64,000 nt of DNA from Clostridiaceae bacterium (GTDB taxonomy: Bacteria; Bacillota; Clostridia; Acetivibrionales; DTU013), in NCBI GenBank assembly GCA_012519745.1, contig JAAYPO010000081.1, positions 5,096 through 69,095 on the forward strand, given 5' to 3'. A program made the position numbers and the translations under genes. Under the pieces are notes generated by a model, which worked only from the letters and a program-made list of their open reading frames with translations, was not told where the DNA came from and did no database searches. Positions 3,152-57,400 of the stretch are shown piece by piece. How positions within the stretch are numbered: the stretch's first letter is position 1; the number at the start of each line of letters is the position of its first letter.

Positions 3152-3372
3152 CACGTCTGGATGAATTTGCAAGTAAGGGCAGTGCCATGAAATCCTAGTG
3201 GATGAATTTGCAAGTAAGGGCATTAATTGTGATATACAATGGAGACATAATGTAAGGTATCGCGATTTATGTAATCTTTTTATGGATTATATGCAACAAA
3301 ATAGTTCATTACCCTACCCTTTCTTGAAAAATCATCCACTAGGATTCTCAACTTGCATTTTAGTCCACCCGG
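3152..3372. repeat. Dispersed repeat element, copy A (canonical orientation)
   Basis: Two direct arms TGGATGAATTTGCAAGTAAGGGCA at 3158-3181 and 3199-3222 (41 bp phase). A conserved core follows. An inverted arm CTTGAAAAATCATCCACTAGGATT lies at about 3323-3348, plus a degenerate second inverted arm at about 3352-3370. Confidence 0.85.
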
Positions 3373-3498: not shown

Positions 3499-4848
3499 TT
3501 ATTGTCCTTCGGGTCTGTTGCTGATATCAATGGCCATGTCGCCGGAACCCAGTGAATTTTCCGGCCTGTTTTCACCACCCACAGCCATATTCTGGGCCTT
3601 CGCCCCGATGTTTGCCGGAGAGATCTGGTTGAGGTTATAGATATTGCCTACTGAATCCATATCCTTCTCAGAAACAGTATTGGCAACGATCTGACGCCCA
3701 TCCAAAAATCCCCGGATACCCTTTATTATCTCATCGAGGACAGCATCTGATTTATTCATATCCATAACATAGCGGGCTCTTTCAAGGTTGTAAGGACCCG
3801 TACATGCAAATGTGCAGGACGTGATCTCTGAAACGATCAGCCAGGGTGTGAAGGAAGTTCTGACAACAACGTTTTCACTTCTGGTCGAGTCGGTTATTGC
3901 CATACCAACGGATATTTTCGATTCCGTATAGGTGCCTTCCCCTTTAAAATGGATCAGGATGCTCTTGAAGTTGATTTCAGCCCATACGATATGGGCGATA
4001 TTTATGGCAATGGTTCCAAAGGACCATAAAAGCAGCGGAACAAAAAATGTTTCCATGATCGATGCGAACGAAGTCAGATCGGGCAGATCCCTGTTCTTCA
4101 GGAACAGCAGCAATGCAGACAGGCATACGAGCAGATGACCGTAAGCAGAGGTCACCAATCTCAGGATCGAATAGATCGCCGGGAATTTTATCTCCTCATG
4201 GATCGGCTGGGTCTCCTGGATGGTATCACCTTCAAAGCTGCCTTTATCGGTGCTTCCCTCCATGACCAGCTGCGGTTTCATCTCACGATATATCCTGTTC
4301 GGTATTTCTTTATATCTCGAATTTGCCATTTCCATGTCAAGACTTCTGAATATGTCTTTCGGATGCACATTCTCCTGCCAATGATCACGGTATTCTGAAA
4401 CCTCTGTCTTCGGATTGAGCATCTCCGCACGTTTCTTTGCTATGAACAGTGCATCGGCAATCGAAACGATCATTAGTATTACAACGAGCAGCAAATAAAC
4501 AGTCGGGTCCAGAGGGGCTTCAGGGATCACTGCCCCTTTCCTCAGCCTCAGCTCACAGATGACCGGAGCAATGACAGCCAGAGCCGTCATGATCAAAACA
4601 CCGTTCAGACTGACGGATTCTATCTTGAGTCTATTGACCCTTTTGATAGAAAGATTGTTAGGCTTCCAGATAATGAGCAATAAGACCGCAAGTATCAGAC
4701 CCATCCATTGCGGATACGATGAATCGGCCAGTTTTGTCAGCCCTACCGAGCCGGATAAAATAGCGATCAGATATATAATAAGGATCATTATGGAATATGC
4801 TGCCTTGTGAGCTATGACATGAACATAGTTCCTGATCGGGTAGGGCAA
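3499..4848 (-). CDS. Hypothetical multi-pass membrane protein (possibly the distal part of a frameshifted larger gene)
   Basis: 449 aa ORF with a TTG start. It has several hydrophobic helices in the N-terminal and central parts and a soluble C-terminal region. I recognise no family. Confidence 0.55.
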   Translation of the reverse strand: MPYPIRNYVHVIAHKAAYSIMILIIYLIAILSGSVGLTKLADSSYPQWMGLILAVLLLIIWKPNNLSIKRVNRLKIESVSLNGVLIMTALAVIAPVICELRLRKGAVIPEAPLDPTVYLLLVVILMIVSIADALFIAKKRAEMLNPKTEVSEYRDHWQENVHPKDIFRSLDMEMANSRYKEIPNRIYREMKPQLVMEGSTDKGSFEGDTIQETQPIHEEIKFPAIYSILRLVTSAYGHLLVCLSALLLFLKNRDLPDLTSFASIMETFFVPLLLWSFGTIAINIAHIVWAEINFKSILIHFKGEGTYTESKISVGMAITDSTRSENVVVRTSFTPWLIVSEITSCTFACTGPYNLERARYVMDMNKSDAVLDEIIKGIRGFLDGRQIVANTVSEKDMDSVGNIYNLNQISPANIGAKAQNMAVGGENRPENSLGSGDMAIDISNRPEGQ

Positions 4849-6218: not shown

Positions 6219-7532
6219 TTACTTGTCTTCTTCGCCTCTGGCGAGCTTTACATGAGAATCGGCCATCTCATAGCCGGCAGCCTGTGCACAGGATGTGTTC
6301 AGATCGAGAGCAGTCACTGCTGCCGCCGCTATCTCTGCCAGTCTCATAACATTTCTGTTATCGTCCACGCTCTTGCCGAAGCCTCCGCAGCCGATCAGCC
6401 TCAGGGCTTCCTTTGAGGTACCGAACATCGTACCTCCTCCAATGGTAGCAAGCTCCATACACGGCAGACTGACCATGAAATGGACACCATCGTCGGTTGC
6501 ATCAGCCTGTATGAAACAGCTTGAAGAGGATATGACATGAGCCAGATCCTGACCGGTAGCCGCATAAAACGCTGCGATAGCATTTGCCGCATTCACATTG
6601 AAGCCTGCGATAGTACCGCTGTAGCACGAGCCCAGATAGCATTTGTGGAAGACTACCTTTTCGACGCTTCTTGGGTTCACGCCTTTTTTAAATACGGCAC
6701 TAAGCACCTCTGTGGGGATAAACACCTCTGTCTCCACAGCTTTGCCGCGTCCCTTCAGAACATTGATGTGAGCCGACTTTTTGTCGGTGTCAAGATTGCT
6801 GCTGATGGTGATCAGCTTCCAGTCCGGCATCATAGAAAGAATATATCTGGTGATGTCTGCAGAAGCCTTTGTCACACCGTTCATTCCCATGGCGTCGCCT
6901 GTCTTGAACGCCATCCTCAGGAACACCTTCGTCCCAAGCTGGTACGGTTCGATATCCTCGAGGCGTACAAAGGGATCCTTTGACAGCTTTCCAAGCTGCT
7001 CGAATAATACCTTGTCGGTTTTGATCCTCTGGCAAAACTCCTGCGCCTTTATTATATCGGGAGCTTCAATCAAAGGCGCTCTGGTCATACCGTCATAGTG
7101 CACCAGTGTCCTCAGCCCTCCTGCCATGTTGATGGCCTTGATGCCCCGCTGCACTCCGGCAACAAGAGCTGCCTCATTTGTTGCCAGCGGTATATATACC
7201 TTCTCGTTGACATACTGGCCGTTGATCTGGATCGGTCCGGCCACTCCAAAGGGGATCGTAGCCGCTCCGATTTTTCCTTCTATCCCGGTCAGCAGTCTTT
7301 CACCGCCGACCAGTGTGGCATTGTCAAGCCTGGTGTTCTTGATCTGTTCAAGGGATACCCCTGTTGCTTCCTCTACAGATTCACAGCGTATCCTGGCGGC
7401 AGCATCACATGCGTCTGCCACCTTTACAGCATCTGAGCCGAATATCTCAGTGAATACGACTGTCTCCAGATGCTGGCTTTTGATTTCACCGGCTATATAT
7501 TTTGATTTGATATCCTTCAATCGATCGTTCAT
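6219..7532 (-). CDS. Hydroxymethylglutaryl-CoA reductase, soluble, class-I-like motifs
   Basis: IPFGVAGPIQINGQ...YIPLATNEAALVAG..RG and TGDAMGMNGV resemble the HMG-CoA reductase catalytic-domain motifs (GVAGP, ATTEG-like, DAMGMN). No membrane domain. Confidence 0.8.
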   Translation of the reverse strand: MNDRLKDIKSKYIAGEIKSQHLETVVFTEIFGSDAVKVADACDAAARIRCESVEEATGVSLEQIKNTRLDNATLVGGERLLTGIEGKIGAATIPFGVAGPIQINGQYVNEKVYIPLATNEAALVAGVQRGIKAINMAGGLRTLVHYDGMTRAPLIEAPDIIKAQEFCQRIKTDKVLFEQLGKLSKDPFVRLEDIEPYQLGTKVFLRMAFKTGDAMGMNGVTKASADITRYILSMMPDWKLITISSNLDTDKKSAHINVLKGRGKAVETEVFIPTEVLSAVFKKGVNPRSVEKVVFHKCYLGSCYSGTIAGFNVNAANAIAAFYAATGQDLAHVISSSSCFIQADATDDGVHFMVSLPCMELATIGGGTMFGTSKEALRLIGCGGFGKSVDDNRNVMRLAEIAAAAVTALDLNTSCAQAAGYEMADSHVKLARGEEDK

Positions 7533-18044: not shown

Positions 18045-18123
18045 CCGCTTGCCATTGCCATTTACCATTTACACTTACCATGTGCCATTTGCCATGTGTC
18101 ATTCACCATGTGCCATTTGCCTT
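18045..18123. repeat. Imperfect heptanucleotide array (RCCATKT, about 10 units) in a divergent promoter region
   Basis: gccatt gccattt accattt acactt accatgt gccattt gccatgt gtcattc accatgt gccattt. An 18-nt block, accatgtgccatttgcc, is repeated 28 bp apart. Confidence 0.8.
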
Positions 18124-18164
18124 TCTTTGATTATGCAATCAAATTCAATCAGGAGGAAAAACCG

Positions 18165-19076
18165 ATGACGGAATCCATAAAAAAATATTTTAAGGTCGGA
18201 ACTATCCATTTTATGTCATATCCACAAACAATGAAGGGAGAAGGCCCCATAGCAGAGACTCTTATGAAGATCCTTTGCGACGACTATTTTGATGCCGTTG
18301 AGCTGACCTGGATCAAAAGCGACGAGGTAAGGAGTCAGGTGAAAAACATGCTGGACGAGTCCGGCATAACTGTTTGCTACGGAGCACAGCCAAGGCTCCT
18401 CACCACGGGATTGAACCCGAATGCCGCCGAGGAGGCAGACCGGGCAAAGGCTGAGGCAACTCTCATGGAAGCGCTGGATGAGGCTGAATACCTGGGCGCA
18501 AAGGGAATCGCCTTCCTGGCTGGCAAATATGATGAAGAGAAAAAGGAGCATCACTACAACCAGCTTCTGAAAACAACGAAAAACCTGTGCAAATATGCCG
18601 CCACAAAAGGAATGAATGTTGAAATAGAGGTTTTTGACTATGATGTGGACAAAAAATCACTGATAGGCCCTGCTCCTCTTGCAGCCAGATTTGCAGCCGA
18701 GATACGTGAATGCCATAACAATTTCGGTCTGCTGATAGATCTGTCCCATATCCCCCAGACCCACGAGACCAGCCGATTTGTGATCCAGACACTGAAGCCT
18801 TACATCACACACCTCCATTTCGGCAGCGCCGTTTTGGGAGATCCGTCCATGGAAGCATTTGGAGACACACATCCCCGGTTCAACTTTGCCAATTCGGTCA
18901 ATTCAGTGAATGACCTGGCCAACTTCCTGCAATGTCTGAAGGATGAGAATATGTTCTACCGGAAGGACCCCATGGTGCTTTCTTTCGAAGTAAAGCCGTG
19001 GAAGGATGAAAACCCCGAGCTTGTGCTGGCCAACACAAAGCGCGTTCTCAACCGTGCATGGGCGCTTGTGGACTAA
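18165..19076 (+). CDS. Sugar phosphate isomerase/epimerase family (xylose-isomerase-like TIM barrel) protein
   Basis: AGGAGG RBS 7 nt upstream of the ATG at 18165. The length, the pattern (..LIDLSHIP..) and the context fit. The family assignment is tentative. Confidence 0.6.
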   Translation: MTESIKKYFKVGTIHFMSYPQTMKGEGPIAETLMKILCDDYFDAVELTWIKSDEVRSQVKNMLDESGITVCYGAQPRLLTTGLNPNAAEEADRAKAEATLMEALDEAEYLGAKGIAFLAGKYDEEKKEHHYNQLLKTTKNLCKYAATKGMNVEIEVFDYDVDKKSLIGPAPLAARFAAEIRECHNNFGLLIDLSHIPQTHETSRFVIQTLKPYITHLHFGSAVLGDPSMEAFGDTHPRFNFANSVNSVNDLANFLQCLKDENMFYRKDPMVLSFEVKPWKDENPELVLANTKRVLNRAWALVD

Positions 19077-19126: not shown

Positions 19127-20086
19127 ATGAAGATAGTAATTTTAGACGGATATACTGAAAATCCCGGCGATCTCAGCTGGGAAGGCTTTGAGTCTCTCGG
19201 CGAGCTTGTGGTCTATGACCGCACAAAGCAGGAGGATATTATTCCGAGAATAGGAAATGCTGAAATAGTGATAACTAATAAAACCCCCCTGGACAAAAAA
19301 GTATTTGAAGCCTGTCCATCAATAAAATATGTCGGTGTCCTGGCTACCGGCTATAATGTAGTTGATATTGAAGCTGCAAAGGAAAGAAACATACCGGTCT
19401 CCAACATCCCCACATACGGTACTGCAGCTGTTGCTCAATACACATTCGCTTTGCTGCTGGAGATATGTCACCATGTAGGAAAGCATAATGATGCCGTCAA
19501 ATCAGGGAAATGGACTTCCTGTCCCGATTTCTGCTTCTGGGATTATCCACTTATCGAGCTGGCAGGAAAAACCTTTGGGTGTATCGGTTACGGAAGGATT
19601 GGCCAGAACGCCGGAAAACTGGCCCAGTGCTTTGGTATGAAGGTAATTGCCTATGACGAGTACCAAAACAAGGAGCTTGAGAACGAGAACATGCGGTATG
19701 TCGATCTCGACACACTTCTTGCAGAGTCAGATGTGATTTCACTGCACTGCCCTCTTCTGCCGTCAACAAATGGCATCATCAACAAGGATACCATTGCAAA
19801 AATGAAAGATGGCGTGATAATCATAAACACATCCAGAGGCCCGCTGATAGTGGAAGAGGACCTCAAAAAGGGACTTGTCGATGGCAAAATATATTATGCG
19901 GCCGTGGATGTGGTATCGTCAGAGCCCATCTCGGAAGACAACCCGCTGCTGACAGCGCCTAACTGCATCATCACACCTCACATCGCATGGGCGCCGAAGG
20001 AGAGCCGCAAACGGCTGCTGGACATAGCAGTCAGCAACCTGGAAGCCTATCTGTCCGGCAAGCCTGTCAATGTTGTCAACGGCTGA
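19127..20086 (+). CDS. D-isomer-specific 2-hydroxyacid dehydrogenase (glycerate/hydroxypyruvate reductase-like)
   Basis: GCIGYGRIGQ NAD-binding motif. INTSRG...D and TPHIAW catalytic motifs. Confidence 0.88.
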   Translation: MKIVILDGYTENPGDLSWEGFESLGELVVYDRTKQEDIIPRIGNAEIVITNKTPLDKKVFEACPSIKYVGVLATGYNVVDIEAAKERNIPVSNIPTYGTAAVAQYTFALLLEICHHVGKHNDAVKSGKWTSCPDFCFWDYPLIELAGKTFGCIGYGRIGQNAGKLAQCFGMKVIAYDEYQNKELENENMRYVDLDTLLAESDVISLHCPLLPSTNGIINKDTIAKMKDGVIIINTSRGPLIVEEDLKKGLVDGKIYYAAVDVVSSEPISEDNPLLTAPNCIITPHIAWAPKESRKRLLDIAVSNLEAYLSGKPVNVVNG

Positions 20087-20089
20087 GCC

Positions 20090-20270
20090 GCTGCGGCCGT
20101 TGGGCCGTTGGGCTGCTGGGCCGTTGGGCCGCTGGGCCGCTGGGCCGCTGGGCCGTTGGGCTGCTGGGCCGCTGGGCCGCTGGGCTGGCTTGGCCGTTGG
20201 ACCGCTGGGCCGCTGGGCTGCTGGGCTGATGGGCTGGCTTGGCCGGCTGAGACGTTACAGCAATTAGTGT
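20090..20270. repeat. GC-rich 9-bp tandem repeat array (about 20 units; consensus GGGCCGYTG)
   Basis: Directly visible periodicity. It starts just after the TGA stop at 20084-20086. It is flanked by a 14-bp direct repeat TGAGCCGCTGCGGC at 20084-20097 and 20283-20296. Confidence 0.9.
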
Positions 20271-29887: not shown

Positions 29888-29916
29888 AATTTTAAATTAT
29901 AGTATAAATAATGTCA
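29888..29916 (-). promoter_or_regulatory. Sigma-A type promoter upstream of typA
   Basis: Minus strand reads TTGACA, a 17 nt spacer, then TAAAAT. Confidence 0.5.
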
Positions 29917-29983
29917 ACAAAATCAAAATCGCCTGCCCGGCCGGACGGCATAAAAAGGTAACGGCCGGTTCCCCCTGACAAAC

Positions 29984-30255
29984 GACTGTTTTTTCAAATA
30001 AGGGCATCACACCCCTGACCGACTGGATGATTTTCCAGGTAGGGGCATCACACCCCTGCCCAACTGGATGATTTTTCAGGTAAGGGCAGCCATAAAAATT
30101 CTAGTGGATGATTTTTCAAGTAAGGGCAGGAAATCTGGCGATTTTATTGAGCATAATCCATAAACAGAATACATAATTCGGGATATCATACATTATGTTG
30201 CCTTAAAAAGACAACATCTATGCCCTTACTTGCAAATTCATCCAGTAGGATTTTT
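29984..30255. repeat. Dispersed repeat element, copy B (inverted relative to copies A and C; expanded arm array)
   Basis: Arms TGGATGATTTT(T/C)CA(A/G)GTA(A/G)GGGCA start at 30024, 30065 and 30105 (41/40 bp phase), plus a partial arm at about 29986. The core is the reverse complement of the copy A/C core. An inverted arm TGCCCTTACTTGCAAATTCATCCAGTAGGA lies at 30221-30250. Confidence 0.85.
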
Positions 30256-30330
30256 ATTCTTCCCTTTATACAATTAATTTGGCTATCTGGATCCTGCACC
30301 CTTGCCAAATTTGCAGATCCACCCTCATAG

Positions 30331-30355
30331 AAAAGCCCCCTGCAGTATCACAGGG
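30331..30355 (-). terminator. Weak hairpin plus T-run after the HD-GYP regulator gene
   Basis: Minus strand reads CCCTG-tgatactg-CAGGGG followed by CTTTTC. Confidence 0.35.
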
Positions 30356-30392
30356 AGCCGGCGGTACTTCACTTAGCAGGCAGAGAATACAT

Positions 30393-48140: not shown

Positions 48141-48309
48141 ATCATCCTCCCATTGGGACACTCTTCGTCATCAGAGACATACTCCCTGCAGAAGAGTGTC
48201 CCATTACATCTGACGACACTCTTCATCATCAGAGACTTCAGGGACATTTCTCCTCAACCAAAGACCAGCTTCATGCACAGAAGTGCCCTGTACCTTTGCC
48301 CCCTCACCA

Positions 48310-49374
48310 TTATACCTCACAACTGTTGATAATGAAAATGCTTGCCTGCTCAGAAAGGTCGATTTCCCTTGGCAATGCCAGACGCTGCATTTTTTCGTCA
48401 TATACTATGCGCACCAAAGGTCTGGTAGGCATTTTCATGTTTTCCCTGACAACAATGGCTCGCTCCTTTGTATTGAGCAGCACACCTGTTCCCACAGGAT
48501 AAACAGTGACATATTTGACGAAGCTCTCCACTACCTTGGGATCGAAATGATATATGCCCAGAGAAGTGATATATTCGTATACTTCATGAGGCTTTAGCTT
48601 CTTCCTGTAGACACGGTCCGAAGTCAAAGCGTCATAGACATCCGCTATCGCCACTATCCTGGCAAAAATCTGTATGTTCTCACTTTTCAAATGCAGGGGA
48701 TATCCGCTGCCGTCATATCTTTCATGATGTCCCAGCGCGATATATGCAGAAGTCATATTCAGTCTGTCACATTTTTTCAGCATATCATATCCCAGTATGG
48801 TATGCTTCTTGATCTCCTCAAACTCATCTACCGTCAGCTGGGAGGGTTTCTTTAAGATCTCCCTGGGTATGCAGAGCTTTCCGATATCATGCATCATAGC
48901 ACCGATCCCCAGCTCCTTGAGTCTTTCCGTATCAAAGCCTAGTCCGATGCCGGTAATAAGTGAAAGGATGCATACATTTACCGAATGCTCGAATGTATAA
49001 TCATCCACCGACTTTATTTCTGTAAGATTATACAGGATATCACCATTGCTGATGAGCTCATCTATGATTTTATTGACCATTGCTTTAACTTTTTCGACTT
49101 CTTCAGTCACAGAAAAATTATAGCCGGTCATCATTTTTTTAACCAGGACCACTGCCTCATTGCGAGTTTCATCATTGACCACATCATTCACTTGGATACC
49201 TTGGGAAATGTCATCCTCCAGATATACTTCAGAAATACCGCGCTTTCTTAGCTGCTCAACATAGCTCTCTCTCAGCTCAACACCCTTTTCAAGCAACACG
49301 CCGCCGTCAGAACTGAATATCGTCCTGGCCAGCTTGATACCTACAGGTATTGAGTCGACACTTACTCTGCGCAT
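48310..49374 (-). CDS. HD-GYP domain protein (putative c-di-GMP phosphodiesterase), stand-alone
   Basis: HSVNV..., MHDIGKL, HHERYDGSGYP, IADVYDALTSDRVYR. Confidence 0.88.
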   Translation of the reverse strand: MRRVSVDSIPVGIKLARTIFSSDGGVLLEKGVELRESYVEQLRKRGISEVYLEDDISQGIQVNDVVNDETRNEAVVLVKKMMTGYNFSVTEEVEKVKAMVNKIIDELISNGDILYNLTEIKSVDDYTFEHSVNVCILSLITGIGLGFDTERLKELGIGAMMHDIGKLCIPREILKKPSQLTVDEFEEIKKHTILGYDMLKKCDRLNMTSAYIALGHHERYDGSGYPLHLKSENIQIFARIVAIADVYDALTSDRVYRKKLKPHEVYEYITSLGIYHFDPKVVESFVKYVTVYPVGTGVLLNTKERAIVVRENMKMPTRPLVRIVYDEKMQRLALPREIDLSEQASIFIINSCEV

Positions 49375-52082: not shown

Positions 52083-52289
52083 TCCTGGTGGATGAATTTG
52101 CAGGTAAGGGCAGCTCAAAAAATCCTGGTGGATGAATTTGCAGGTAAGGGCAGAGATTTCATTATGTTACAGTAACATAATACTCAATATCTCGATTTAT
52201 GTATTCTAATTATGGACCATATGCAATAATATTGCTCTAAACCAATCAGTCATCTTACCCTTAGTTGCAAATTCATCCACTAGGATTTT
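52083..52289. repeat. Dispersed repeat element, copy C (canonical orientation)
   Basis: Arms TGGATGAATTTGCAGGTAAGGGCA at 52089-52112 and 52129-52152 (40 bp phase). A perfect 10-bp hairpin ATTATGTTAC-a-GTAACATAAT. The core is about 80% identical by eye to copy A. An inverted arm TTGCAAATTCATCCACTAGGA ends at about 52286. Confidence 0.85.
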
Positions 52290-54970: not shown

Positions 54971-56428
54971 TTAGTATTTTAATTCAACAACAACCGTATC
55001 CTCGTACACAGTGATCCCGCTGACCACTGCTTCTGCCATCTCATGGGTCAGCTCGCCCCTGGAAAACATTGCTGCCGCAGCTTTCCCCAGTGTGATTAGT
55101 TCAGATGAGGAAGCATCTCTGGTCCTGTGGCTTTCCACCTCACCTTCCAGCAATGCCAGCCGTCTTTCCAGCTGCAGGTTCATCCTCTCAAACAGCTGCT
55201 CCGAGATCCTGCCCTCAAGCCTGTCTTTGTAAAGCAGTTCCTGCTGGCGCCGGCCGTATTCCAACTGGGTGCATATTCTCGAATATGCAGCAGTGCGTTC
55301 ATTACTGCCCTGTGATGCTATTCTCTCCTGCAATTCCAGTATCTCCTTGTTATCTTCAAACAACCCTGCCAGCTCGCGGCAAATAGGCGCCACGATATCA
55401 TCCTCATAGACAAAATGGCTGGAGCATACTGCCTTTCCCTTTCTGCAGTAATTACCGCAGACATATGCCGTACCATTCCTGCGTTTCCTGGCGTACATAG
55501 TGCTGCCGCAGTCACCACAGGTCATTATGCCGTTCAATATGTGCCGGCTTTTGTTCCGGCTGATCTTACTGCTGTTCCTTGCATTCCTGAGCCTTTGCAC
55601 CTCTTCATATGCTTCCCTGGATATGATGGCCTCATGAGTACCTTCTGTTATTACCCACTTCTCCTGCGGAAGCCTCCGTGTCTTTTTGCTTTTGAAGCTG
55701 ACCTTTTCACTGACTCCCTGTACCGTATCACCAATATATACGCGGGAACAAAGTATACGTCTGACAGTTATCCTGTTCCACCCCTCACCCCTCGGTGCGC
55801 CGTACCCTTTTTTTTCCAGATATTTCGAAATGGATGAATAACCATGACCGGATATATAGAGAGAGTATATTATCTTTACGATATATGCCTCGGCTTCATC
55901 TATGACCAGCTTGTTTTTTTCAATATCGGACTTTCTATATCCAAAGGGCGCCCTGCCTAAATACTCGCCCCTTTGTATCTTAAAGCGAAGGCATGCGCGT
56001 ATCTTTCTGGAAATATCACGCACGTACCTCTCATTTACCCATGTCTCGATGCCTACGGTGTCATTGTCCACAAGACTGTCATAACGTCCGTCTGCGGTCA
56101 AGAGCCTGACGCCGCACTCCTCGAGGTAATCTATCATCTGCAGTGTCTTGGCATTGTTCCTTCCCAGCCGCGAGAGATCCTTCAGCAGCACCAGATCGAT
56201 CCTGCCGGCGGATATATCCCTTTTCAGCCTGTCCAGACCTTCTCTCTCAAACGCCGACCCCGACACATTATCATCGACATAAATGCCGCAGATCCGGCCA
56301 AGCCGGTTTACAGACACATACTCCAGCAGCAGGTCCCTCTGGTTCTCGATGGACTCATGGTTTTCTCCGCTGTCATCTCTGCTTATCCTGACATAGATCC
56401 CTATATTGCTCTGTCTGCAGTTCCCCAT
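54971..56428 (-). CDS. Large serine recombinase (resolvase N-domain, recombinase domain, zinc ribbon, coiled coil; SpoIVCA/TnpX-like)
   Basis: IGIYVRISRDDS...NQ (catalytic Ser region), DLSRLGRN, GRAPFGY, and zinc ribbon CGDCG...CGNYC. The C-terminus ...TVYEDTVVVELKY resembles the SpoIVCA end. The likely start is MGNCRQ at 56428. Confidence 0.9.
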   Translation of the reverse strand: MGNCRQSNIGIYVRISRDDSGENHESIENQRDLLLEYVSVNRLGRICGIYVDDNVSGSAFEREGLDRLKRDISAGRIDLVLLKDLSRLGRNNAKTLQMIDYLEECGVRLLTADGRYDSLVDNDTVGIETWVNERYVRDISRKIRACLRFKIQRGEYLGRAPFGYRKSDIEKNKLVIDEAEAYIVKIIYSLYISGHGYSSISKYLEKKGYGAPRGEGWNRITVRRILCSRVYIGDTVQGVSEKVSFKSKKTRRLPQEKWVITEGTHEAIISREAYEEVQRLRNARNSSKISRNKSRHILNGIMTCGDCGSTMYARKRRNGTAYVCGNYCRKGKAVCSSHFVYEDDIVAPICRELAGLFEDNKEILELQERIASQGSNERTAAYSRICTQLEYGRRQQELLYKDRLEGRISEQLFERMNLQLERRLALLEGEVESHRTRDASSSELITLGKAAAAMFSRGELTHEMAEAVVSGITVYEDTVVVELKY

Positions 56429-56631
56429 TATATGATGCCCGCTCCCTGGTGCCGCGGGACACAAGCCTCAGCAGCTTCAGCCTGATATCTCCGGCTTTCT
56501 CCCTGCCGGTATGGCAGATCACGATCCTTTTTTGCCGTTTCCTTCTCCCATCCACAGTATGAGGCCTCCCATCAGCACTTCTGATATATGGTATATATAT
56601 ATTTCATGGTATTTGTCCATTAGAAATGATA

Positions 56632-57004: not shown

Positions 57005-57400
57005 GCAGGCGGTGACAGGCAGAGGGTCGGTACGACATTCGGACTACAGCAAACATGCGGAAGGCCGGTACTGCATTCAGACATCTGGAACTGGAACAGG
57101 CGGAGGGCCGGTACTGCATTCAATGACTGCAAGCGTTACAGATGCTTCGGTATCACGCAGTTCAAATGAGGCACCAGGCACCACAACCTGCGGCACGGAT
57201 GCCGCAGGCGCTGCGTCCGAGCCACGGATGGCGAGTGACCAGCGCCCTCATTTGAGCAAGTGATGCCGATTAGCAGATGTTCGCGAAGCAGTCTGAATAC
57301 AGTACCGGCCCTCCACCTGTTCTGAAGAAGTCCGGCTGTCGTACCGGCCTTTCGCCTGTCTGCTGCAGTCCGGCCGCAGTACCGGACTGTGGTCGGATCG
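57005..57400. repeat. About 400-bp nested inverted-repeat structure with phased CGGTAC motifs
   Basis: CGGTAC at 57028, 57066 and 57109. The complement GTACCG at 57302, 57341 and 57379 (38-43 bp phase). The arms are mutually reverse-complementary. Inner palindromes include CCTGCGGCA-cgga-TGCCGCAGG (57187-57208) and TCAAATGAGG/CCTCATTTGA. Confidence 0.85.

Follow-up and report, generated by a model that had tools for sequence, protein, structure and literature searches.

The intergenic sequence that abuts the amidase ORF in this clostridial DNA raises the question of what kind of repeat it is. The original prediction described it as one of three intergenic copies of a dispersed, unannotated family and offered four identities for it: a MITE-like non-autonomous element, a recombinase-flipped switch, a protein-binding regulatory module or a small RNA gene. 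Our analysis of the window (the whole 64-kb stretch of DNA in which the three copies lie) and of related genomes favours the first of these, although the element has neither a target-site duplication nor a parent in the sequences searched; the switch, the small RNA and the regulatory module proved weak. We give a probability of roughly one half to a non-autonomous element of the MITE-like, or foldback, type, with arms that serve as phased sites to which a protein encoded elsewhere would bind.

Ordinary chromosomal DNA makes up the window, which carries rpsB-tsf and genes for an Amidase_3 protein, BipA, an HD-GYP response regulator, dnaE, phosphoglucomutase (PGM), SpoIVA and sigma-54. Its sequence belongs to a biogas-fermenter metagenome contig (SRR3184675); for the BipA protein and the protein encoded at 3499-4848, no database record was found. 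The arm TGGATGAWTTTNCANGTAAGGGCA occurs at 10 sites in the window, each within one of the three intervals first proposed, and at none in 100 dinucleotide-preserving shuffles of the same sequence. A 23-nt arm query, GGATGAATTTGCAAGTAAGGGCA, gives 8 matches with three or fewer mismatches, and a slightly degenerate version gives all 10. A 30-nt core pattern has exactly three occurrences, and copies A, B and C are the only full matches in the window to an nhmmer profile based on 15 copies. Arm, pattern and profile searches thus all bear out three intergenic copies of one architecture. The parts of these copies are listed here, together with a second element that is described further below.

3158-3349, plus strand: copy A as a whole, with two arms, core and one inverted arm
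3158..3181, plus strand: outer left arm of copy A, 24-mer TGGATGAATTTGCAAGTAAGGGCA; an exact arm match that starts 41 bp ahead of the inner arm
3190..3222, plus strand: inner left arm of copy A with its AAATCCTAG extension; the 24-mer starts at 3199
3223..3314, plus strand: core of copy A, 92 bp, 28% GC (from alignment, regular-expression search and GC content)
3245-3272: dyad ACATAATG..ATTTATGT in the core of copy A, followed by the core motifs TTATGTAATC, TTATGGA and GCAACAAAAT
3315..3349, minus strand: right arm of copy A, variant GGATGATTTTTCAAGAAAGGGTA, with its CTAGGATT extension; the 24-mer is 3315-3338
29983-30256, reverse complement of copies A and C: copy B as a whole; its four-arm array flanks the core on the opposite side
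29983..30128, plus strand: array of copy B, four arms starting at 29983, 30024, 30065 and 30105 (spacing 41, 41 and 40 bp)
30129..30220, minus strand: core of copy B, 92 bp, in the opposite orientation to A and C; dyad at 30171-30198
30221..30256, minus strand: single arm of copy B with its extension, on the ACATAAT ('L') side; an exact arm match, 24-mer 30221-30244
52083..52152, plus strand: left arms of copy C at 52089 and 52129, 40 bp apart (arm search)
52153..52255, plus strand: core of copy C, 103 bp; dyad at 52175-52202
52256..52289, minus strand: right arm of copy C with its extension, 24-mer 52256-52279; an inverted repeat with the left arm
57014-57390: second element, three direct arms, GC-rich core and three inverted arms, spaced 38-43 bp

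Several boundaries had to be moved. Copy A is real, but similarity between copies stops at about 3349 and not at 3372, where its end had been placed. The arm had been sized at 24-33 bp; the 24-mer is genuine, and because AAAATCCTAG precedes it the arm extends to about 35 bp. The distance of 5 nt to the first ATG of the amidase ORF (3147) counts from 3152, and the 24-mer itself starts 11 nt away. The 'short hairpin' listed as a shared part falls in a 22-nt segment that is conserved in neither sequence nor position; a conserved hairpin between the left arm and ACATAAT was rejected, as the 4-6 bp stems available to most copies there lie at differing places and have weak z-scores. In copy A, the arm region 3190-3222 forms a 30-nt inverted repeat with 3317-3346 (90% complementary). 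The array of copy B lies on the CAATAAAAT ('R') side of its core; its outermost arm (29983) is degenerate, and Tandem Repeats Finder (TRF) assigns the array a period of 41.

Across the family, arms of about 35 bp are inverted on both sides of an AT-rich core (92 bp, or 103 bp in copy C), and the inverted arms match over 30-32 nt with 90-91% complementarity. Arms are also repeated head-to-tail, in arrays of 1-11 units with an exact 41-bp period. The longest arrays are found at loci in metagenome-assembled genomes (MAGs), with 11 units in L040 and L009, eight in L031 and five in L008 and L021. The spacing of 40-41 bp that had been read from copies A, B and C is correct for all three, and the phasing is in fact stronger than first claimed, with its exact period, its arrays of up to 11 units and its retention in a sister family with diverged arms. 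The distance between the starts of the inner arms is 116 bp in 13 of the 15 complete copies and 127 bp in the other two, copy C and L056; both of these have an 11-bp insertion in the core, which in copy C creates GCAATAATATTGC. A helical-phase constraint suggested by this 11-bp step was rejected, since the corresponding distance in the sister family, about 125 bp, gives it no support.

The linkers between arms are near-identical within an array, differ between loci and come in three flavours. One flavour can pair with the AGGGG/AAGGG of the arm, forming a 13-bp hairpin in L040, and the 3' end of the linker pairs with CAAGTAG or AGGGG in L040, L021, L033, L007 and copy B. The other two flavours, GCAGTAGGGCGTCTAAG and AAAAATCCTAG, cannot pair, so that a hairpin in each 41-nt unit was rejected as a family feature. 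Two known kinds of array were also considered and set aside. CRISPR arrays have repeats of 24-37 nt with unique spacers of similar length, whereas the linkers here measure only 6-17 nt and hardly vary within an array. REP/BIME elements consist of alternating palindromic units; the arm is no palindrome, the units run head-to-tail, and a single linker flavour is capable of forming a hairpin.

Left and right arms of the same element covary (0.108 against 0.076 ± 0.011, a value reached by one of 500 shuffles), a score that relatedness of the copies alone may inflate. In L033, for example, both arms read TGGACGA. This likeness is compatible with homogenisation within an element. As single-stranded DNA, copy A folds back strongly (z = -6.6).

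The 15-copy alignment shows a core that is fixed in length and in the order of its motifs: a variable segment of 22 nt, the dyad ACATAAT-N14-ATTATGT, TTATGTAT.CT, TTATGGA and CAATAAAAT. Identity sits in these four blocks, and the spacers between them are saturated with changes. The 28-bp dyad is usually centred on GATATC. Mean identity is 86% for the arms versus 59% for the core, and the cores have a GC content of 28–31% versus 46% for the window. The dyad has the inner CATAA/TTATG motifs of the dif consensus. An Xer/dif site (two 11-bp arms around a centre of 6-8 bp) was nevertheless rejected, as the two motifs are separated by 16 bp in 15 of 15 copies.

All 16 copies examined are intergenic, and no ORF is conserved inside them over a size range of 190-650 bp, as had been predicted for the copies in the window. 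Copies A, B and C each lie between co-directional genes on the minus strand. Two signals were predicted outside copy B, on either side:

29889..29917, minus strand: predicted sigma-70 promoter of the BipA gene, TTGACA-17-TAAAAT
30334..30359, minus strand: predicted intrinsic terminator of the upstream HD-GYP response-regulator gene

These predictions place copy B in a spacer between transcription units. Copy C is flanked by a long hairpin after the spoIVA stop codon and by the PGM promoter region with its conserved TGTGGTAAAAT. No transposase or integrase gene stands beside any copy, and no ORF is flanked by arms, either in the window or in approximately 100 kb of MAG loci. Searches of the window, of the 8-kb loci around each arm match in the species genomes and the JGI metagenomes, and of the phage, plasmid and viral sequences found no autonomous parent element with the same arms; IS copies are often missing from MAGs in general.

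To define the distribution of the family, an arm pattern was scanned over 185,579 species genomes and the JGI metagenomes, and 8-kb loci around each match were compared. The species genomes gave 40 stretches with arm matches. Thirteen of these are in OH_CBrB_222 and OH_CBB_73, both MAGs of Bacillota bacterium, and each of the remaining 27 is an isolated match in an unrelated phylum, ascribed to chance. The metagenomes added five contigs with complete elements (L047, L053, L055, L056 and L065); matches in L052 and L049 were discarded as chance, one of them falling within coding sequence. Besides the three copies in the window, related genomes hold at least 12 complete copies, and the dispersed family proposed from the window therefore reaches beyond it, into two MAGs and five metagenome contigs. 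Phages, plasmids and viral contigs gave no match to the arm or to the core dyad. The hosts of the family all belong to one narrow clade of uncultured, anaerobic-digester Clostridia. A search of the literature on 41-bp repeats and clostridial MITEs found nothing relevant. Short-read contigs from other samples break within the arms (in further samples, within those of copy C), as expected of a multi-copy repeat.

Related species differ in which sites are occupied. The SpoIVA-PGM spacer, which holds copy C in the window, is element-free in three syntenic related species whose SpoIVA is 88–90% identical, and no arms were found in the 20 kb around the three empty loci. An element between an HD-domain gene and dnaE shows the reverse, as this spacer is element-free and short in L083, L087 and the window. 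Given further copies, presence/absence differences of this kind and no match to an Rfam family or in the phage and plasmid collections, the original prediction withstands the grounds for refutation that it had named. There are also signs of age. Cores within one genome are 61–66% identical, with some pairs from the same genome reaching 72–75%, which indicates that there was no recent burst and that the copies are old. Among 10 assemblies that stem from different sequencing runs, the spacer of copy B shows 100% identity, arguing against current activity, and copy A in a second sample differs by one single-base indel. A copy in L015/L025 contains a nested insertion of another small element with inverted repeats. 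At 15 pairs of flanks, where decay of the array ends blurs the boundaries, no target-site duplication or target consensus was seen.

The element at the HD-domain/dnaE spacer came to light through a weak profile match in L079/L082, from a species with a SpoIVA 90% identical to that of the window. It has three or four arm units with an exact 41-bp period, a single inverted arm and a core that retains CATAATG-N14-ATTATGTA. Its arms, CAAATTTTTCGCTTTGGGCCAC, have approximately 15 of 24 positions in common with the arm of the window and do not retain GGATGA. L082 has exactly one 41-bp unit more than L079. Period and dyad have thus persisted although the arm sequence changed, as would be expected if the arms co-evolve with a putative, lineage-specific binding protein of fixed geometry.

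The MITE-like reading draws on the small size, the inverted ends, the intergenic sites, the lineage restriction, the empty sites, the array dynamics and the arm variants. The family is non-coding with inverted termini, its copies are dispersed, and their insertion is polymorphic between genomes; density reaches three copies in 64 kb, with 13 loci in the MAGs. The element would be a non-coding unit of approximately 190-650 bp in which a fixed AT-rich core is bracketed by inverted arms of about 35 bp, the terminal 41 bp (arm plus short linker) being reiterated outward, head-to-tail. A transposase or recombinase encoded elsewhere may assemble on several arm sites at each end, and such an arm-binding protein would formerly have spread the element in trans into 'safe' spacers between terminators and promoters. 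Arrays may lengthen and shorten by unequal recombination or by replication slippage, and conversion within an element, or foldback pairing, could keep its two arms alike. Since a target-site duplication and a parent are both absent from the sequences searched, we file the family as a variant of the MITE kind and as a member of no named family.

A host function offers a different account of the same geometry, one that we regard as unlikely. According to this account, the element is an architectural or partition-like module retained by the host: arm arrays nucleate a nucleoprotein complex, the AT-rich dyad core is a second binding site or an unwinding site (compare iteron and centromere arrays, or BIME/REP bound by gyrase or IHF), and copies are kept by selection. 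The contrast of well-kept arms and near-invariant core blocks with saturated spacers speaks for it, as do the rigid 116-bp length, the 41-bp period retained while arms diverged between lineages and the low GC content of the core. Rigid length and strong conservation of arms and blocks are also compatible with a host function, as opposed to a decaying selfish element. Further points in its favour are the invariance of copy B over 10 samples and the orthologous loci L033 and L053, which have an element in the same spacer between flanks that are about 84% identical. The cores of these two elements, however, are 61% identical, no closer than random pairs, so that conservation in situ is not demonstrated. 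Close syntenic relatives do without any elements, which are therefore dispensable, and the genes next to the copies (amidase, BipA, PGM) share no function. Arrays range from 1 to 11 units, and a nested insertion has been tolerated.

Somewhat more remote is the idea that these, far from being decaying selfish DNA, are a new class of chromosomal nucleoprotein assembly site, with up to 11 putative binding arms set at exactly four helical turns and inverted around an AT-rich dyad core, maintained and recognised by a dedicated clostridial protein for a role such as chromosome organisation, partition or programmable recombination. The elements with a TwoAYGGAY-like core, considered below, would then form a sister class. 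We hold this to be improbable.

We doubt still more that the element is an invertible switch, in which a recombinase would flip the 92-bp core by way of the inverted arms and alter the expression of the adjacent gene. Inverted repeats of 24-35 bp do bracket the core, copies point both ways with respect to the downstream gene, and the cores of L033 and L053 are in opposite orientation while a three-arm array lies on the same flank of each. That lone opposite pair, a difference between species, can be the product of inversion in situ, of independent insertion or of ectopic conversion via the symmetric arms. Frequent flipping is argued against by the arrays of three or more units, which in seven of eight cases are found on the CAATAAAAT side and would be randomised, and by copy B, identical in 10 assemblies; copies A, B and C show one orientation only in all assemblies (consensus assemblies, from 10 samples for copy B). 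The 24-mer arm is asymmetric and has no conserved internal dyad, and is therefore not a typical crossover site of a serine or tyrosine recombinase. No recombinase gene adjoins any copy in the loci covered, and the serine recombinase gene at 54971-56464 is syntenic in relatives that have no repeats of this family. The core, finally, carries no conserved promoter: a scan of the three cores in the window found neither a conserved sigma-70 promoter nor a terminator within the element. The TATAAT noted on the minus strand of copy A is indeed present (3283-3288), but it has no -35 element, was not called by the promoter scan and is replaced by CATAAT and TATGGT in copies B and C. The promoter scan gives no support to an outward promoter feeding the amidase gene.

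A role as RNA, whether as a small RNA whose repeated GGAUGA motifs sponge up a protein, like the CsrA binding proposed for TwoAYGGAY, or as a cis-acting structure in untranslated regions, is very improbable. The arms contain GGATGA (GGAUGA in RNA), which arrays reiterate up to 11 times, the linker can pair with the arm in some arrays, and a TwoAYGGAY-like core is surrounded by the same arrangement in the nearby element at 57014-57390. However, the motif is absent from the sister arms beginning CAAATTTTTCGC, which led us to reject a CsrA sponge, and linker-arm pairing is missing in two of the three linker flavours. A search of the whole window against Rfam 15 gave no match at the gathering score, and none was found for the family at E ≤ 1 with copy A or at E ≤ 0.05 with seven related loci; as far as known RNA families go, the description of the repeat as unannotated stands. 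Six outer pairs of the dyad are invariant and therefore uninformative on structure, and the inner pairs are paired in 81.2% of cases versus 79.8% in shuffles (reached by 121 of 500), so covariation is absent. Mean z-scores of the minimum free energy (MFE) of the core are weak on both strands (-1.0 on one and -0.6 on the other), and RNAalifold recovers from the family an arm stem and the invariant dyad only. These results run counter to the small RNA gene that had been suggested and lead us to read the core as a group of motifs conserved at the DNA level, not as a structured RNA. Mismatches between arms show no strand bias (six versus three for G-U and A-C), the long duplex would bury the arms in a read-through transcript, a predicted terminator and a predicted promoter flank copy B, and orientation to the neighbouring genes is variable.

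The second element bears on this question because its core (57145-57271) aligns end to end with TwoAYGGAY (RF01731) at 32.8 bits and E of about 0.002, a score that is below the gathering threshold of 43 bits. The closing P1 stem of TwoAYGGAY has been described as 'often very large (e.g., 24 base pairs)' (Weinberg et al. 2010, PMC2864571), and its members from gut metagenomes are multi-copy elements with long inverted flanks. Together with the layout of 57014-57390 (arms, core and inverted arms, as in the 41-bp family), this makes TwoAYGGAY, too, look like the middle of a foldback repeat. One foldback scaffold seems to carry different cores in these bacteria, and the orphan RF01731 motif may be the middle of a repeat element instead of a free-standing sRNA. 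TwoAYGGAY has been proposed to bind CsrA (PMC4333381). This proposal does not transfer to the 41-bp family, which differs in having no AYGGAY hairpins, no match to RF01731 and a core without covariation. In both kinds of element, the arm ends facing the core read ...CA and TG..., like the tips of a DDE transposon; we treated this as coincidence because, with tips in this orientation, the transposon itself would lie outside the element, amid housekeeping genes.

Least credible is an operator array through which a transcription factor would control the adjacent genes as a regulon: the sites are long, phased, conserved and upstream of genes, copy A abuts the amidase ORF and the arm contains AATTTTCA, which we take to be half of a CodY box, but the downstream genes are functionally unrelated and have orthologues in relatives without the sites, orientation varies, the distance to the start codon ranges from 11 to more than 800 bp, and up to 11 copies are atypical for operators.

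If the family is a mobile foldback element, it provides a bacterial case of an inverted-repeat element that ends in exact 41-bp arrays able to expand, and it points to an enzyme in digester Clostridia, a transposase or recombinase, that would assemble on many phased sites. There are practical consequences as well: the arms break short-read assemblies of an abundant biogas-reactor species, and array length can serve as a strain marker, as in the one-unit difference between L079 and L082. The significance would rise if an arm-binding protein with a cellular role, or programmed inversion, proved to be true.

The closest general likeness is to bacterial MITEs such as Correia/CREE of Neisseria, RUP of pneumococcus and bcr1 of the Bacillus cereus group. 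Like these, the family is small, non-coding, dispersed, intergenic and lineage-restricted, with inverted termini and presence/absence differences. It differs from them in having no target-site duplication or parent IS in the sequences searched, in the reiteration of its inverted repeat as an exact 41-bp array of 1-11 units, and in cores that are about 60–75% identical per genome while arms and four blocks are conserved. The BOX elements of pneumococcus are mosaics of the form boxA-boxB(n)-boxC with a module of approximately 45 bp in variable number; to our knowledge, no protein that mobilises them has been named. They too are built of modules, sit between genes and combine complementary ends with a tandem module of similar size (41 bp in the present family), but their variable module, boxB, is internal, whereas the family reiterates its terminal inverted module around a core of fixed length, and no kinship in sequence between the two is expected. 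Eukaryotic Foldback (FB) transposons, for which target-site duplications and sometimes coding partners are known, likewise have long inverted termini made of tandem sub-repeats in variable number around a non-repetitive middle, in another domain of life and on another size scale. The sopC locus of the F plasmid (12 repeats of 43 bp) and the STAR repeats of S. aureus (intervals of approximately 40 bp) resemble the arrays in repeating a motif the size of a protein-binding site head-to-tail, at about four helical turns and in variable number. These, however, are single plasmid loci or have no inverted partner and core, whereas the 41-bp family has many chromosomal copies, each with an inverted arm and a dyad core.

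The main repeat family, whose non-coding copies A, B and C lie in the window, breaks up assemblies of this digester species; in copies A and C, the arms are where short-read contigs from several independent samples (L078, L091 and L103-L105) terminate. The other features, in the window and in loci or contigs of related genomes or metagenomes (L-numbers), are as follows:

L079 15789-16035 and L082 ~6940-7210: sister-family element, in a related species
L015 3680-3890 and L025 160-400: different small inverted-repeat element, inside a main-family copy
L052 1-575: inverted-repeat segment in an unrelated metagenome contig
L079 11480-11720 and 15625-15750; L083, L087 11480-11900; window 48161-48310: hairpin modules GGGGACAC...GTGTCCCC
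Window 18049-18121: TTGCCAT tandem repeats (7/14/28 bp), overlapping the start of ORF 18096-19076
Window 20082-20234: 19 tandem copies of the 8-bp unit GCTGGGCC, at the 3' end of ORF 19127-20086
Window 54971-56464, minus strand: large serine recombinase gene (Resolvase + Recombinase + Zn_ribbon_recom)
Window 57014-57390: second arm-core-arm element, with the layout of the main family and an unrelated sequence

The sister family has arms of the sequence CAAATTTTTCGCTTTGGGCCAC with a period of exactly 41 bp in both L079 and L082, and its core retains CATAATG-N14-ATTATGTA. The array comprises three units in L079 versus four in L082, so that strains differ by one unit; L083, L087 and the window all lack an element at this site.

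The element nested in L015 and L025, with ends CACAGTGTGCAAAAA... and ...TTTTTGCACACTC, is placed between the left arm of the family copy and ACATAATG, and is partly duplicated in L025. An arm-like match in L052 was rejected as a family member: an ORF (MDEISGKGKS...) begins there, and its first bases match the arm pattern by chance. This contig carries approximately 460 bp flanked by a perfect inverted repeat of approximately 60 bp, which might represent an assembly artefact or an invertible segment within a gene. The hairpin modules, which are reiterated 3' of spoIVA and HD-domain genes (three in L087, each ~130 bp), look like a separate, terminator-like dispersed family.

Because the 8-bp period at 20082-20234 is not a multiple of three, gain or loss of units would cause frameshifts. 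The serine recombinase gene, which lies next to the spoIVA, DAGK and sigma-54 genes with conserved synteny in all relatives examined, is a fixed part of the chromosome and not a component of a visible mobile element.

In the second arm-core-arm element, three direct arms (GGCCGGTACTGCATTCA-type, spaced 38-43 bp) and three inverted arms bracket a GC-rich core. The element occupies the spacer that separates the sigma-54 gene from a 103-aa gene; in relatives this spacer is just ~120 bp. With a score of 32.8 bits (below the threshold of 43; E ~0.002), the core at 57145-57271 aligns to the full model of the Rfam RNA motif TwoAYGGAY (RF01731).
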